Positions 49,683 to 57,500 of a stretch of 64,000 bases of DNA are shown here, piece by piece. The notes beneath the pieces are model-generated. The model was not told where the DNA came from. It saw only the letters and a program-made list of their open reading frames with translations, and searched no databases. Made by a program: the position numbers and the translations under genes. Location of the stretch: positions 1,871,345 through 1,935,344 of the forward strand of contig MU004237.1 of NCBI GenBank assembly GCA_010405405.1, written 5' to 3'. Origin of the DNA: Microthyrium microscopicum (taxonomy: Eukaryota). Numbering within the stretch: the stretch's first letter is position 1; each line of letters starts with the position of its first letter.

Positions 49683-52064
49683 ATGGCGAATCTTCGAATT
49701 CAAGAGTTTCCCGTCTCCCTCAGAGCTTTGTGTTGGCTCTTTCTACTTAAAATCGTTGATGCCAGCAACTCCAGAATAGGTAAGTCTGGGTAACAGAATA
49801 GAATCGATGACATGCTCACTATTGCAGTGACTACTAACGGGCAAACCCTAACGATGCGCAATCACACAATGTGGAGTAATTTCACACGTTGGTCCACTGA
49901 AGAATTCCCAGATGCGACCACGACTACAGGCTGGGACTGTCGTGAGAGCTACCTGGCCTACTATACCCTTGAGCAGTCCTATGTGGAGATGTTAGCTAGT
50001 CAAAGCAATCTATACACTCAAGAGGTGAGGACAAGCGTATTCGAAACAATTCAGGCGCTAGGGAACAGTACATCAACGTTCAAGGGCTGCGATGGAGTCG
50101 TGAGAGTGAAAGTTAATGGGGACCTGCCGTTATACACGACTAGGACCATCAGCGCGGTCAAGACCTACTTGATGCCACCGTCAAGAGAGATTGTGTTGGA
50201 CAAATCAAACGAGAATGACCCGAGGCGTCCACATGAGCCGAAATGTTCTATGGACCCGGAGCCTTGTGAGCATTTTTGGCAAGAATATTTGTTCGAGCGA
50301 TGGGGCATCAACGCTAAGAACAGCCATGTCCTAGGCTCTGGTCAACGTCGAGTTCCGTCGCGCTGTCTAGATGCCGCAAACTTTAGGCAAGAAAATGGAC
50401 GAAACGCGCGAGGACGGGGACTTCCAATATGTCAAATGAACACCGGTAGCGAAGTTCTCATTCTATACTGGCCATCAAAGATGTCCAGTGATGGCGATTG
50501 TGCTTCAACAGGTAGCCATAGCTCTCGAACGTCATCTATTTTATCCGGATCAAGTTTCTTAGTGGGAAGGTTCCCAAAGGTTCGGTTCTTCAGTACAACG
50601 GCGATTACTTTCCAAGGGAATGACATTCAATTGCGAACAGTCATCGCAAATAACCAAACTACAATTTTCTCGGAGAAGTTTGCGACAAAGTCTGTAATGT
50701 ATGGCAACTGGACCTTCACCTCACCCACAATCTATCTTGCGCATCACCCCATCACATACATGATAGAGACCATACGAATGCACGAAAATGATACCCTGTC
50801 AGTCTTGGGCACAAATTCCAGGGCTTTAGAGACGCGTGCAGCTGGTGTAATACCACTGAGACCTGGTGATGTCTACACTCGAGAACCTATTCGACCAGAC
50901 TACATGACTATTTCTGGCGACGATTACGTCAAGTTAGTGGCTGCCGGAAAATACAACCCTCTTCTGCCCCAATTCATGTCATTTTCAGATCGACTTCTCA
51001 ATCCCAATGACCTTCAGAACCCGGTCCCTGCTAGTGCCTACTACGATGCTCGTTTTGCAGATTGTTGGGGTAAACAGTCACACTGTGGTGCAATAACAGA
51101 TGACAGCTTCCACCCAATTCTTTCCGTCGTGAATGGGGCTTGGGAGGAGATGTTGAATTGGACCGACGCACGACAAAGTACCGCAAGTGAAAGCTACTGG
51201 AGAGACTGCGATAGACCATTCATGGTTGACCCGCCTCTTCTGATACCGATCGAGGAGGTTGACGACCCAAATGCATTGGCAGGACCAAAAGCACCAGCCT
51301 GGGCTGCGACGCAGGCCACACCCGCAGCTCAACATAAGAATCCTGACAGAAACGATGTGATGGGATCAAGCAACAACTGGAGACCCAGTCACCCGCAACC
51401 ACGGCCATGGATTGTTGCTCCAACACCAACACCAACAGGCAAAGCCAGCAGGACCTGGTCGACGAAAGATGATAGACAGGATGGAATGGCTGGAACAAGT
51501 ACCCTGTCGGCGGACAACCGCAAGCTCCATAATTGGATAAAAAACCTGTTGGACCCCATCTGGGTCGGTATAGAGGACAAGCATAAACAAGGAAACAGTG
51601 GCGATAGATTCGCACAGGGCGACTCGGCTGAGCGAGCAGGAAGAGGAAAAGGGTATTTAGATGATCATATGGACAACGGCAGCGACCTGTCTAAGGGTGA
51701 TTCAGATGACCGACGGGTTGGATACTCGACTGGTCAAACGGATAATGGTCACGGCCCATCCAAAGACGATAACAATGGACCAAGGACTGGATCTTCCACT
51801 GGGCAAAGCGAGCATGATAGCGTTTTGTCCAAAGGTGATATAAGCAAACCCAGAGGCGACAACTTTGGTGGCAGTTTCAGTAACGGACGAGAACAGAATG
51901 AAGATAAAGCCACGAACGAGTCAAACGGACCAACATACGACACGAATTCTCATTTTGGCGGTAGGGGAGTGCAAAATGGCGCTAAGAGAACGATCTTGAG
52001 CCCATCCATACATACATCGGCAATTGTAGTTTTATCAACTCTGATACGATTAATACCAAGATAG
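49683..52064 (+). CDS. Uncharacterised secreted/cell-surface protein, possibly GPI-anchored, 2 exons
   Basis: Exon 1 (49683-49779) has a hydrophobic leader; intron 49780-49827; Cys-containing core (TFTSPTIYLA, DLQNPVPASAYY, DCWGKQSHCG, DPP), disordered tail and hydrophobic C-terminus. Confidence 0.7.
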
Positions 52065-52623
52065 TATGCAGTCAATAATGAGAATGACTTGCCAAACAAA
52101 CATACTTTGACATCAAAATCAGCCACGCCAATCGAGGGAGAGTCCCATCGACGATGCATCAAACCAAACACTGAGCAAAATCATAAAACACACATCACAA
52201 ACCATCTAATCGAGGATCCAACAACGCTCAATTCACTATATACAACCCTAACCAATCTCCAAATCCTAAAATAACACAGATTCGCCTTGCTAAAAAACAT
52301 TGGCTCCTTGCGACCTCAAGACAAGAAAGCAGCTCAAGTCCGAAAAGCAGCCCAAGGGTGCGAAAACAAAGCGCCCATATGGCACTGTACAGTAGGTAGC
52401 CTCCGAAGAAAGTTTTTGGTCCCAACGGATATTACCCAGAAAGTATTACAAGCCCATGTCTAGCCCTTCGGGCTAAAACAACTCCAATAGAATGATGATA
52501 TGATGCAAACAGCCTCCGGTATTAGCAGTATTCGACATGCGGGTATTATATGCTGGTTTGAATGATTAAGTCTCTCTCTCGTCCTAGCCTCCAGTAGAGA
52601 GTTGCGGTGTGTGATGGTGAAAG

Positions 52624-52824
52624 TCACATAATCGTACACCTCCTCCTCGCCGCCTTCGGCGCTTCTCCAACCTTCTGCTTCCCCTTATCTCTCCCCTCCT
52701 TCTTCTCCCGTCGCCAAAAGCCACCTGTGCTCCTCTTCCGTCTCCCATCTTCCTCCCCGGACGCCGCCAGCCGCTGACTTCCGCTCCGCTCTGGTCTCTC
52801 CTGCTGGCGCCGTCCGTCCCCGAG
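52624..52824 (-). other. In-frame post-stop extension (66 codons) ending in a CaaX box
   Basis: Frame after the TGA at 52827-52825 reads LGDGRRQQERPERSGSQRLAASGEEDGRRKRSTGGFWRREKKEGRDKGKQKVGEAPKAARRRCTIM* with no internal stop. Confidence 0.55.
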
Positions 52825-54564
52825 TCACCTCTCTCCGCGTCCTCGTTGGTCCGCTGCTGCATCTGCATAGTGGCCTGGGCGCACTACGCCGTGGCCGTTT
52901 AGTGGGCGTTCGGGCTCGGGATCGCGTCTCCGGCCACCTGGTGTGCGTAGTTGTTCGTTGGCGGCGAATTCGACGCGCCGGCCGGATGTGCTGGATCGGT
53001 GGGATTTACTGCTTGGTGTGTAGCCTGGGTCTTTTGGTGGGACTTTTGGGGGTGGTGTTGTTGGGTCGTAGGGTGATGCTGGGTCGCTTGCGCGGCGCGG
53101 GCGGCGGATGGAGGCGCGTTGCGGTGTGCGTGGGAGGGGTTGGAGTTGTTGGGGGCTTACGTGTGTGCTACTAGTTCGGCGGTGGTGGGATGGTGTGCTC
53201 TTTGTGCTTTCGCGGCGGCGCGGAGGAGTAGCGCCGCCGACGGGGCCGCCTTCGATGGATGCTGGGTTGGAGGTGCGGCGGACGCCGGGCGCGCGTATGG
53301 GGCGGGGAGGGGTGGGGAGTTCGGCGGTGGGTGCGGGTTGGGAAGGTCGAGCTGCTGTTGCGGAGGAGGATGCGCGGGAGCGGGATTGGGATTGCGGAGC
53401 GCGTGAGGGTGTTATGTCTGGGATGGGTTGGGTGAGTGGTGGAGTAGTGCTGGTTGATTGGCGTGGAGGAGGGACGTATTGTGGTGGTGGTGGAGCAGCA
53501 TATTCGCGCTGTAGACCAGACGTTGGGAAATGTGAAACTGGCGTTGGACCGCCGGTGGAGGACTCTACGGACTCTGGACCAAAGCGAGGCGTTAGATCGA
53601 GACTCTTCCGTCGCATGATGGCTATGAGATATTGCACCGTTTCTGCTGCGTCTTCAAATGCTTCGTCTGATACGCCCTCCTCTTCGCCATCTTTAAGGTG
53701 GCGTATTGTACGACGTGCTAGCTGTCTAGCCGCTTCATGTTCATGCGCGCAATCCCAAAGAAACGCCGCGTGTTCAAAAGCTGTCGATAATCGCAGAGGA
53801 TGAGCGCCTGGTAATAAAGCTGCTGCTGAGGATTGCGCCGTTTGAAAATAAGTCCTAGCGATTGGGACAAAGTTCCTCGATGGAAGGATGAAACCAGATG
53901 GATACGGTAGCGAAGGCGAAGGTTCGAATCCCGGCGGATAATTCGGTGTAGCATGGACTTGAGGCGGACTATCGCCTGGTGCCAAACCAGCATATGGATT
54001 GGTTAAGAACGAAGCATCGGAAGTAACCGAATTGATCGGGTCGCGCAGAGACGGCTGTTTACCTCTGGAATTCCGCTTAGGCGGTGTCGTATCCTTTTTT
54101 GGTGTCATGCTCTCATAGCCGGATCCCGAGTAGTATTCCTGATATCTGAGATTTGAATCTAGATCCAAGCCAACTGGTACGACCTGTGATGCCCCACTGA
54201 CCACGGTGATGGGCGGATCATTGTGGAACAGGCAGAATATGTGCACAAACGAAGCACGCAACTTTGCGGCTAGCACCTGGCACTCCGGCCCCTCCTGGCC
54301 GTCTTGAGTGTATGGTAGAACATAGGCCTCTAGAAGTGTTAAGCCTTCCTTGGATAGCCAGAGTATGTGATGATATAGTTGTAGGGATCGAGTGTCGCGA
54401 GTTGTATCCAGACGTCGTAGTTTGCGGGCTTTATTGAGTTTACTTCCCAGTAATAGAGAAAGACCCAGTATTTGAAAAAGAGCCTCCGAGACTATGTGAT
54501 TTCGATCATCTGTGAATTGAGCTATTCGACCCAGATATTTTTGGTCGACTTCGGAAGCTGCCAT
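52825..54564 (-). CDS. Divergent 14-3-3-like domain protein with long Pro/Arg/Ser-rich tail
   Basis: AKLRASFVH and LPGAHPLRLSTAFEHAAFLWD resemble 14-3-3 KMKGDYHR and [21 protein letters not shown]; likely start MAASEVDQK at 54564. Confidence 0.8.
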   Translation of the reverse strand: MAASEVDQKYLGRIAQFTDDRNHIVSEALFQILGLSLLLGSKLNKARKLRRLDTTRDTRSLQLYHHILWLSKEGLTLLEAYVLPYTQDGQEGPECQVLAAKLRASFVHIFCLFHNDPPITVVSGASQVVPVGLDLDSNLRYQEYYSGSGYESMTPKKDTTPPKRNSRGKQPSLRDPINSVTSDASFLTNPYAGLAPGDSPPQVHATPNYPPGFEPSPSLPYPSGFILPSRNFVPIARTYFQTAQSSAAALLPGAHPLRLSTAFEHAAFLWDCAHEHEAARQLARRTIRHLKDGEEEGVSDEAFEDAAETVQYLIAIMRRKSLDLTPRFGPESVESSTGGPTPVSHFPTSGLQREYAAPPPPQYVPPPRQSTSTTPPLTQPIPDITPSRAPQSQSRSRASSSATAARPSQPAPTAELPTPPRPIRAPGVRRTSNPASIEGGPVGGATPPRRRESTKSTPSHHRRTSSTHVSPQQLQPLPRTPQRASIRRPRRASDPASPYDPTTPPPKVPPKDPGYTPSSKSHRSSTSGRRVEFAANEQLRTPGGRRRDPEPERPLNGHGVVRPGHYADAAADQRGRGER

Positions 54565-57500
54565 TGCCAAAGAAGCTAATTTAAAATCAGCATTAATCAA
54601 CAGAACACAATTGCGACAAAACGCATTGTGGTAGAATGGGAGGGGTGTAGTTGATATAAGTCGTTTGCATGAACATACCAATGCTTCAAAAGTAGCGAGA
54701 CCACAAACGGCTCAATGCAGAGGCCCGATGTCGAACAAAGGCCTCGCGATTGACCACGAAGGATCCGTTCTCCAGTTGACGAGGAAATGCGGAGGTTTTT
54801 AGAATTGCGATTTGTGATGTATATCAGTCGGGTATTATTGATTGACCAGGGCTGGGATGGAGCTCCAACACTCGTGGCTGCAAGCTCCAGGTTGTATGAT
54901 GTATCAATCGCAAGTCGGAATATATCTCCCCAAATATCGTACAACTAATGCGCAGGCTTGCCAATTACGATAAGTATGAATACAAGCGACGGGGTATCTC
55001 TAGCAAATCAAAACAGATCCAGACTGTACCTTCATTTCAGTTAGCGATCAATACTTCGTACACAAATACTCCACCATGGCGCCTGTCATCAACATCTTCA
55101 ATAACCCAGGACAATGGCTTGAAATCTGATACAGCAATCATCAATGCCGCGCGACAACGCACGTCAATGCTCTTGCGCGCAAGGCGACAGGTCCGTGAAA
55201 GACTCTCCACGAAATTCATCTGCACGAAATTATGACATACCTGGTAGACAAGAGACAAGCTTCAGAAAAGAAGGCAATCAAATGAATGAAAATCGCAAAA
55301 CGGGCCTCCCATTCGTCGGACGCGGTCCAATGGCACGTCGTAGACTGCAGCGTCACTGTTTTATGGACTCCACGCTTTCTCCAACGTCCCTGCGTAGCGC
55401 TCTTTCCGATTTCCCAGCCCTTTTATCGAATGTTCCAAACTCAGACTATTTCGGAGGCTTTATTTATTATGGTTGGCGGGAACGGGGAGCTTTCGTGGTT
55501 GCTGAGGATTCTGATTTGCTGCGAGAGCTTGGAGAAGCTCCTCTAGCTCGAGCCGAGGTGGATTGGGGGTCAGCTCTTCTTCGATGGAGTTGTAGACTCG
55601 GCTTCTACTGCGTCGTCGACTGCTGCGGTGTGACGAGTGGACGGACAACGCATTGCTTGGGCTCGTGGCAGCAAAGAATAGGAATTGGTTGACTGGAGAG
55701 AAGGGAAAGAAGGTTGAAGCTATCACAGACTGTAAGCTTGAGCTAAACGACAACACCAACCCGACGTCGTGGGGATAACAACAAGGGGAGAAGAGCTACT
55801 GACAGGAAAAGCAAAAGTAGTGGAAATAAAAAAAAGGCAAAGCTTCAACCTTGTCAAGTGCAAGTGCAATTGCAAGCGCACAAGTGAACAAGGTCCAGGC
55901 GCTCGGAAAGCAAAGGGGAAAAATCGAGTTTGAATCCTCGTCCTCGAAATGATTACACGCCCTTGTCCTGTCCGTGTCGTGGATGGCGTCTTGTTATTTT
56001 TCTCTTGTCTTCGTCAGAGGCAAGCTCGGCGCTCTAGAAAATGAATCTGGCCGCCCTGTCTAGGATTCTGGATTGAGCAAAGCTGGGCCCTGGATACGAT
56101 CCCTGATAGTGGTAAGGATATCTCGCTACGTAATCCCTTTCTTGCTTCCTTCGCCCAAGGACCACGTCAATTGCCTGCTGACGAGGTTCAATTGAAAGCG
56201 ATAACGAAAGATCGGGAAGCCGTCCAGACAACCAAGCCCAGCCGGAACTGAGAGTCGCGCGAGCCACGCGCTTGGTGTTCAGGTCAGGTACCGAAAATGA
56301 GGCGCACGCGAGGCGTTGAACCAGTCCAGAATTTTGGTGGAGCGGCTAGTCTTTGAGCCTCAAAAGGCGATCCAGGAAAAAGTAAGTGTTCCAGTTGTAC
56401 GGGTTTCTGATGCCAACAAATGGTTAATAACCAATCTTGGGTCCCGGATTTGATTTTTCTGGGGAAATTTGCTGGTGAGATTGGTGATATATTTGGCATC
56501 AACCAGTGGAAGAAGTCAAAGTTGTATTTTGATGTTTCTGAGAATACGGCCGTGGTCGGCGCGTGGCAGTCAATGGGGTTAAAGGTCTTGGAGCTCGAGG
56601 TAGAGTAGAGTAAGCTCCAAAGTTTCGAAACCGATACCTATGCGACTAATGTCATCAATTGACTCAACCCGCCCCCGTAACAGTACCTTAACAATCCGTA
56701 CCAGGCGTTTTTGTGAACAGCGTTGTGTATCGTCAAGAAACGTCTAAACACAATAAAATTCTCCGCACATGCAACGGTCAGGGTAATTGAGTCCACTGGA
56801 TAGACAAAATAAAAGGGTACGGGAGGTAGGTAGTCGATCAGATATCTGCAAGCCTGCCGCAGGCCCGCAAGCTGCAGACGCCTTCTTTAAAGAGAGTCGA
56901 CAATGCTTCAACAAACCTCTTGTCTTCTACACCACCACCACACCCTTTTCACACATCTTGCTTTCTTTAGATTGTCTTTAGCCCTTTGGACCAGCCATTT
57001 TCGTTTAATTCTTGAACAATTCCTTCTCTGCTAACCACCCCAGGACCTCGAGCTTCCCATCTCCTGCGTGGTCCTGCGTCCGGCGCAAGAGCTGCATGCA
57101 CACTCCGTCGAACCGCAGCATGCTACGTGTTCAACCAGTTCCCACGTCCAGCAATCCGCTGCCAGCGTGGCATGCTAGGCGACTGAACCCCAGATCGACA
57201 ACCAGTTCAAATTTTCCTGCCTTTTTTATTATTAGTATGCTTGTTCAGCTAGGGGTTGGTCGAGTGGGTGGTTTGATCGCGGCAAGTTGATCAGTTGGTT
57301 GATGTTTGCCTTGCGGAAGACAGCTTGATAGCTTAGCTGCTTAGCTTTTCTATGTTGGTCTGCTCATATGTCGTGCGCCTTGTGTTTGCTCTGACAGACA
57401 AGCTGGGGTGCTGGCGGCTCTTGTGTGGCATACAAACTCGCCCCAGATTTTCAAGGTGCTGTCAAGATCGCAAGAGTTTGCTGGGTTATTCGTTGGTTCG

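Follow-up and report, generated by a model that had tools for sequence, protein, structure and literature searches.

Translational readthrough of stop codons is an established means of unmasking peroxisomal targeting signals. In fungi as well as in animals, functional readthrough is driven by a short UGA context (PMC4207609), and the peroxisomal readthrough isoforms of GAPDH and PGK are known fungal examples (PMC3840789). Recoding that unmasks a lipidation signal of the CaaX type is established in one virus, where it proceeds via editing, and the cellular lipid anchors that have been noticed behind stop codons are so far isolated predictions from surveys. In the main texts of the open papers searched for readthrough in combination with farnesylation, CaaX boxes or prenylation, no demonstrated cellular case was found, nor anything for fungi or for 14-3-3-like proteins. 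Here we describe a candidate of this kind from the ascomycete Microthyrium microscopicum. It lies in a stretch of 64,000 nucleotides of contig MU004237.1, which is called the window in the following. A gene on its minus strand, which encodes a 14-3-3-like protein, ends in a UGA codon (stop 1) and stays open in the same frame up to a second stop codon (stop 2), which directly follows a predicted farnesylation signal. All coordinates are compiled in Table 1. With a probability of about 65% we consider that programmed readthrough of stop 1 gives rise to a minor, polybasic and farnesylated isoform of the protein; a minor fraction of the protein molecules would thus probably be made in a longer, membrane-tethered form, as far as can be judged from the comparison of sequences.

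The initial annotation had described the layout of the site as a TGA followed by CTC (52824-52822), 66 further codons and an end of the form RRR-CTIM-stop. On re-reading the sequence this description proved to be exact, coordinates included, and the Lys/Arg-rich stretch which it had placed in front of CTIM was found as codons 28-62 of the extension. The final 30 residues of the window extension comprise 12 Lys or Arg residues versus 4 Asp or Glu residues and contain no second Cys upstream. CaaX boxes of the farnesyltransferase type are characterized by a Cys at position -4, an aliphatic residue at position a2 (here Ile) and Met, Ser, Gln, Ala or Cys at position X. A C-x-I-M end which follows basic residues resembles the membrane anchor of the K-Ras4B type (CVIM), in which a farnesyl group is combined with a polybasic patch. 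By their sequences both C-T-I-M of the window and C-E-I-M of the relatives described below conform to the farnesyltransferase rule, and each of them stands directly before a stop codon. The window extension consists of 48% G, 27% A and 9% T, and its Arg codons are AGG, AGA and CGG. The strand composition flips at stop 1, the coding tail in front of it (52828-53400) being C/A-rich with Pro, Thr and Ser codons and the extension being G-rich.

According to the mechanism we propose, most ribosomes would terminate at 52827-52825 and release a soluble 14-3-3-like protein of 579 residues. A minority would decode the UGA with a near-cognate tRNA, go on for 66 codons and terminate directly after C-T-I-M. 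The Cys of the extended isoform, with Met as X and Ile as a2, would then be farnesylated, and the farnesyl group would together with the Arg/Lys-rich stretch tie this isoform to membranes, so that partners of the 14-3-3-like domain could be tethered along with it. As 14-3-3 proteins act as dimers, lipidation of a small fraction could suffice to relocate partners.

The extension is not confined to the window. A collection of metagenome contigs was scanned with an alignment of 12 homologues, which revealed 68 loci; the open reading frame (ORF) runs off the contig in 19 of them and reaches a stop codon in 49. Six complete genes (L002, L003, L004, L005, L006 and L021), whose N-domains are 47-61% identical to that of the window, all read ...R-TGA-CGG, continue for 57-69 in-frame codons and end in R-C-E-I-M plus a stop codon. 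The initial annotation had suggested looking for a conserved stop and a conserved in-frame CaaX box in orthologous 3' regions, and both are present in these six loci of a second clade. Since L004/L005 and L006/L021 are near-duplicates, the loci represent four clearly distinct sequences, or five if the window is included. The context ...R-TGA-C is common to all five, with TGA-CGG in L002, L003, L004 and L006 and TGA-CTC in the window, and C-x-I-M is invariant. The Cys is encoded by TGT in three of the sequences and by TGC in two (L004 and L006). Stop 2 varies as a codon, being TGA in the window, L002 and L003 and TAG in L004-L006 and L021, and is fixed in its position after Met. All length differences among the five extensions (198, 207, 198, 171 and 186 nt) are divisible by 3. 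In the protein alignment the sequences have G-R-R in common at codons 4-6 and an aromatic-R-R in the centre; towards the end they are rich in Arg and close with R-C-x-I-M, which is invariant. The first codons after stop 1 are conserved as codons (x-G-x-G-R-R). The extensions of the relatives, which share the Arg-rich end, contain 14-20% T and 42-46% G.

For the second clade a coding signature could be examined. Codon alignments were built in frame 0 and re-read in the frames +1 and +2, and the ratio of nonsynonymous to synonymous differences (pN/pS) was evaluated with a one-sided Fisher test. For the pair L002/L003 the ratio is 0.45 in frame 0 (p = 0.005), 2.03 in +1 and 0.76 in +2; for L004/L006 the corresponding values are 0.33 (p = 0.004), 1.38 and 1.27. 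Judged by these alignments, the extension of the second clade shows purifying selection in frame 0 only. The extension has a substitution rate ratio (dN/dS) of 0.29-0.52, which is similar to the 0.07-0.50 of the disordered coding tail and lies above the 0.04-0.14 of the folded N-domain. Frame 0 is free of stop codons, and the frames +1 and +2 contain 2 and 7 stops in L002 as well as in L003, 1 and 2 in L004, and 2 and 2 in L006. Over the last 90 nt of the extension the nucleotide identity amounts to 0.91 and 0.88 within the pairs and to about 0.72 between the groups, and in the multiple alignment alignability collapses right after stop 2; the collapse was taken from that alignment, as pairwise nucleotide alignments with free end gaps gave unstable column counts outside the extension. 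In all five sequences the G+C content falls at stop 2 and not at stop 1, in the window from about 0.64 to 0.44 (mean over codon positions).

These observations bear on the possibility that the extension is not translated at all, being either a conserved non-coding element of the 3' untranslated region (UTR) or a chance frame in G-rich DNA whose CaaX end is coincidental. Such an explanation would agree with the nearly open state of all three frames in the window, with the absence of the extension from all called proteins and with the high nucleotide conservation of some parts of the extension in the relatives, for example the stretch encoding R-P-R-A-S-S-S-P-G-P. However, frame 0 is the only stop-free frame in the four distinct relatives, and it is in this frame that pN/pS is significantly below 1 in two independent pairs. 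The change in the Cys codon is synonymous, stop 2 changes its codon and not its position, and both G+C content and alignability change at stop 2 instead of stop 1. The exchange of TGT for TGC would in addition break the core of a UGU-type RNA-binding motif. For that reason a PUF-type UGU element over the CaaX codons was dropped as a candidate. Altogether we regard an untranslated extension as unlikely.

The same question was approached with 5000 dinucleotide-preserving shuffles per sequence. Shuffles of the window remain open for at least 66 codons in 6.5% of cases and end in a relaxed CaaX box in 0.16%, from which it follows that a genome of about 10,000 genes holds a few such cases by chance. 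Over all sequences an equally long open frame arises in 2-15% of the shuffles, a rate that would suit a chance frame. A relaxed CaaX box, however, ends the first ORF in only 0.2-0.5% of them, yet such an end is found in both clades. In the six frames of 421,283 bases (fetched loci and window region) 23 stop-to-stop ORFs of at least 40 codons end in a relaxed CaaX box, and seven of these 23 are the extension described here (window and six loci). The initial annotation had cautioned that the composition makes open frames more likely, which is right for the window itself in view of its 9% T, its near-open frames and the shuffles. On this sequence evidence the open frame in the window alone is a weak argument, and it is the comparison with the relatives that lifts the case above chance.

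Stop 1 itself is conserved. The homologue search gave 553 proteins at E <= 0.001, of which the best 120 were examined, and a quick tree of 50 rows was calculated with support values from the Shimodaira-Hasegawa-like approximate likelihood ratio test (SH-aLRT) and a midpoint root; several of its forks are open. Twelve models (P0004-P0014 and P0041) group with the window in this tree. All of them end in ...[ED]R, aligned to ...R-G-R-G-E-R of the window, and nine of the twelve end in G[RK]GER. The initial annotation had named a strain-specific nonsense mutation or a sequencing error as the main alternative, by which a gene that normally ends in a CaaX box would have been truncated. Nothing but the open frame itself speaks in favour of it. 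Against it stand the aligned stop in all twelve other models of the window clade and in the DNA of the second clade, the lack of a Cys at position -4 in each of the best 120 of the 553 homologue models, the absence of the extension from called proteins, and an RNA contig which is identical to the window. Since the stop is shared and the RNA agrees with the DNA, this alternative is refuted.

The RNA data derive from a single sequencing run (X1) and are kept as contigs, in which only the consensus is visible and rare isoforms or editing levels are not. That the contig originates from RNA is evident from a 103-nt GT..AG joint, the only one it contains. Between 52226 and 54575 it follows the window colinearly with 0 differences, reads TGA at stop 1 and has no splice across it. 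Therefore the major mRNA includes the UGA and the complete extension, continues for about another 400 nt, and is unspliced and unedited at stop 1. The RNA check recommended by the initial annotation, for A-to-G at 52825 or for a junction which skips the stop, thus gave neither in the contig consensus, which does not cover rare variants.

Table 1. Features of the 14-3-3-like gene and of the region behind its stop codon (positions in the window).
Feature	Position	Strand	Remarks
5' UTR intron, 103 nt, GT..AG	54576..54678	-	sole joint of the RNA contig (CT..AC on the plus strand); ends 12 nt before the ATG
Main ORF, 14-3-3-like gene	52828..54564	-	ATG at 54564; 579 codons; coding part intron-free; translation
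Last sense codon, AGG (Arg)	52830-52828	-	read from the sequence
Stop 1, TGA	52825..52827	-	Arg codon (AGG) before, C at 52824 after; proposed readthrough site
In-frame extension, 66 codons	52627..52824	-	starts L-G-D-G-R-R, ends K-A-A-R-R-R-C-T-I-M
Lys/Arg-rich (polybasic) stretch	52639..52743	-	extension codons 28-62; directly 5' of the Cys; from translation
CaaX box C-T-I-M (TGT ACG ATT ATG)	52627..52638	-	predicted farnesyltransferase signal
Stop 2, TGA	52624..52626	-	exactly behind the CaaX box
Remaining 3' UTR to RNA contig end	52226..52623	-	adapter sequence begins at 52226

A minor alternative splice could remove the stop and join the tail to the CaaX-bearing end. The contigs leave room for rare isoforms, the ...G-TGA of all five sequences gives a weak donor-like GTGAC, and the public annotation of the gene draws a long intron in this region. 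The contig is nevertheless colinear over 52226-54575, and no frame-keeping GT..AG candidate across the stop that has a GTRNGY donor and also a CTRAY branch site was found in any of the five sequences. Furthermore, frame 0 is constrained and open over the whole extension including its first codons, which a spliced-out segment does not need, and the annotated junction lacks GT..AG ends. We consider splicing very unlikely. The public model in question, P0003 (393 amino acids; Microthyrium microscopicum, a Dothideomycete), is 100% identical to the ORF over the first 60%. After ...G-G-P-T-P-V-S-H it departs from the ORF, and it takes up the sequence again about 920 nt further downstream, in a different frame and past both stops (52610-53533, minus strand), where it ends in a hydrophobic, Cys-containing peptide. 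Instead of GT..AG ends a short TCACA repeat flanks both sides of its junction. The model looks wrong, as the RNA contig is colinear there and the homologues match the uninterrupted ORF of 579 codons. Downstream of the gene, a stop-to-stop ORF of 756 codons on the plus strand (49794-52064) converges on its 3' end, with about 160 nt between the end of this ORF and the contig end at 52226.

Another route to the extended isoform would be stage-specific A-to-I RNA editing, for instance during sexual development, by which UGA is changed to UGG (Trp). Stop-loss editing with C-terminal extensions is, according to the available parts of two reports, common in some filamentous ascomycetes (PMC11156358, PMC13123824). 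The coding evidence for the extension would fit editing equally well, and the consensus of a contig drops rare or stage-specific variants. In the five sequences, however, the A is invariably preceded by G, whereas fungal editing strongly prefers U at -1 (PMC11156358), a preference by which it hits UAG and UAA. In the RNA contig this position is an A, in agreement with the window (0 differences), and the conserved C at +4 is explained by readthrough and not by editing. The excerpt of PMC11156358 at hand documents fungal A-to-I editing in Sordariomycetes and one Pezizomycete and reports that it was not found in the Eurotiomycete and the Leotiomycete tested; Dothideomycetes are not mentioned in it. 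Editing appears quite unlikely at this site. 

Of the three routes which the initial annotation had put side by side, readthrough is hence the one that fits best, and splicing and editing fit poorly in view of the colinear contig, the missing intron candidate and the G before the A. A UGA followed by CGG or CUA is classified as a 'type II' readthrough context (PMC11166343, in the part available). Stimulatory RNA structures 3' of the stop are frequent in this class and not obligatory. The leaky UGA-C is present in five of five distinct sequences. Some further possibilities were dropped. A selenocysteine (Sec) reading of the UGA was rejected, as no Rfam family, the Sec insertion sequence (SECIS) included, was found at E <= 1 in 52100-53000; to our knowledge the Dikarya lack Sec machinery. 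The extension as an independent small ORF was discarded because the window extension has no in-frame ATG before its final codon, and a frameshift is unneeded, since the extension is already in frame.

Several points weigh against readthrough to a lipidated isoform. The context in the window, UGA-CUC, is not the best-studied CUA or CGG, and no convincing conserved stem was predicted 3' of the stop by RNAalifold (consensus -3.55 kcal/mol, covariation term +2.44). The window extension draws its support only from a resemblance to the extensions of a separate clade, with 25-31% identity, mostly in Arg residues. The comparison includes four clearly distinct sequences in two lineages, which come from related soil metagenomes. 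The quick tree does not place the two clades with the extension as sisters, so that either losses or a wrong topology or root have to be assumed, and more distant homologues are without the extension. The excess of substitutions in third positions is modest ([7, 13, 19] and [7, 5, 11]). The other two frames of the window are nearly open, with 0 and 1 stops, because T makes up only 9% of the extension. Finally, the extension is found in no called protein, neither among the homologue models nor by profile and word-indexed searches, although such an absence would be expected of a sequence that is always located behind a stop.

The database searches in question were of different kinds. With a hidden Markov model (HMM) profile of tail and extension a single match (P0123, E = 2e-4) was obtained among 1.84 billion representative proteins, and by inspection it is an unrelated Glu/Arg-rich repeat protein. 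Word-indexed searches with the alignment of the extension gave 0 matches among proteins of 122-2000 amino acids, which is weak evidence, and 0 among those of 31-121 amino acids. A prokaryote genome collection, scanned for stray fungal contigs, yielded 12 pattern matches, none of which is a relative.

Ten loci have long ORFs and no CaaX extension. Their stop contexts are TGA-A, TGA-G, TAG-C or tandem stops, and TGA-C occurs in none of the ten. L012, L017 and L019 combine long tails and the lack of a CaaX extension with the tandem stops TAG-TGA or TAA-TAG, the opposite of a leaky context. Many of the loci L022-L068, which are 38-45% identical, stop after 309-363 codons, and several groups of them share the end ...M-x-N-P-I. 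The long disordered tail, and the extension with it, appears to be restricted to certain lineages; alternatively, those ORFs may be interrupted by an intron at this point.

The N-domain of the protein of 579 residues (residues ~1-320) is helical except for a disordered loop (118-228) that interrupts it. The remainder (321-579) is a Pro/Ser/Arg-rich tail, likewise disordered. An AlphaFold2 model contains eight confident helices (within 1-114 and 233-320), with predicted local distance difference test (pLDDT) values of 80-90 in the helical blocks, and leaves about 260 residues of the tail disordered. All Foldseek matches listed from the PDB are 14-3-3 chains, entry 4bg6 being among them, with target-normalised template modelling (TM) scores of 0.56-0.68. 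The Pfam model PF00244 (14-3-3) gives 23 bits, below the gathering cut-off of 33.2, and covers residues 235-313 only. Many homologues have a precomputed PF00244 match, and a profile of 12 homologues finds yeast BMH1 among the PDB sequences with E = 5e-6 over helices 7-9. On the basis of the model the label '14-3-3-like' appears to be fair, and it stops short of strict membership in the 14-3-3 family. The ORF is colinear from end to end with homologues of 561-615 amino acids.

The disordered tail includes a block conserved in the family, R-R-x-S-N-P-...-E-G-G-P-V-G-G, which starts at 53263-53280 on the minus strand (residues R429-P434). The R-x-x-S-x-P shape of its start presumably resembles a mode-1 14-3-3-binding site. 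The same shape is seen in R-P-R-A-S-S-S-P-G-P, which is invariant in the extensions of L002-L006. It is curious to find sites of the 14-3-3 type in the own tail of a 14-3-3-like protein.

The signal described here is kept across two deep fungal clades together with a coding signature, and this makes it a concrete and testable candidate. It would also provide the first functional handle on a widespread and unstudied family of fungal 14-3-3-like proteins. Annotation pipelines miss such ends, and in the present case one of them is mis-modelled. A broader proposal, which we put forward as a doubtful possibility only, is that of an old dual-localisation switch at the level of the class Dothideomycetes. 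In this scenario a dimeric scaffold of the 14-3-3-like type would, through a tuned low level of UGA readthrough, become farnesylated to a few percent, and the lipidated subunit could carry an unlipidated partner together with phospho-clients to the membrane. Such a switch would be the first lipid anchor known to arise by readthrough in a conserved cellular system. Canonical 14-3-3 proteins bind the farnesylated and phosphorylated C-terminus of Rnd3, in which the farnesyl-Cys lies beside a phospho-Ser (PMC3690454, in the part available). It is therefore conceivable, as pure speculation, that the protein binds its own end: the groove could sequester the farnesyl tail as with Rnd3, which would result in a self-inhibited anchor that is released by phosphorylation of the extension, which is basic and rich in Ser.

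Among the described systems peroxisomal readthrough, as known for fungal glycolytic enzymes and for MDH1x and LDHBx, is similar in its logic, since a conserved leaky UGA-C is followed there by an in-frame extension with a C-terminal sorting signal and a minor part of the protein reaches a second location (PMC4207609 and PMC4359377, parts available). The hidden signal, however, is a peroxisomal targeting signal of type 1 (PTS1) in those cases and a CaaX box with a polybasic patch here. Their extensions comprise about 7-20 codons in comparison to 57-69, and their context is UGA-CUA as opposed to UGA-CUC or UGA-CGG. The carrier is a metabolic enzyme there and a scaffold-like relative of 14-3-3 proteins here, and the present case is known from sequence alone.

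For a farnesylated CaaX box that is unmasked by recoding of a stop codon, the large antigen of hepatitis delta virus is the established example. Recoding of a stop codon adds a farnesylated end of the CaaX type (CRPQ) to this protein and confers a new function (PMC3185554). It differs from our locus in being viral, in the removal of a UAG by the RNA-editing enzyme ADAR, as opposed to ribosomal readthrough, and in the length of the extension, which is 19 residues. A ribosome profiling survey in Drosophila noted a readthrough extension of Syx17 with a predicted farnesyltransferase signal and a positive PhyloCSF score (PMC3840789), and in Arabidopsis one of 144 readthrough extensions, that of MT1C, ends in CVLC (preprint 10.1101/2021.11.09.467898). 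As far as the available parts of these two sources show, both are single predictions without follow-up and belong to other kingdoms and families. Their support comes from ribosome profiling, whereas the support presented here is comparative.

Stop-loss A-to-I editing in filamentous ascomycetes is alike in that a C-terminal extension is gained from a canonical stop codon. It is described for UAG with U at -1 and for the sexual stage (PMC11156358, in the part available), whereas the gene described here belongs to a Dothideomycete and has UGA, with G at -1.

With canonical 14-3-3 proteins the gene product shares an N-domain model which matches only 14-3-3 chains among the top Foldseek matches. 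Its domain is divergent from theirs, with a Pfam score below the cut-off, a disordered insert of 110 residues and a tail of 260 residues. We know of no canonical 14-3-3 protein with a lipid anchor of its own. The predicted anchor resembles that of K-Ras4B, where C-x-I-M also stands directly after a basic run. K-Ras4B is a GTPase, whereas the carrier described here is not, and its signal is reached only past a stop codon.

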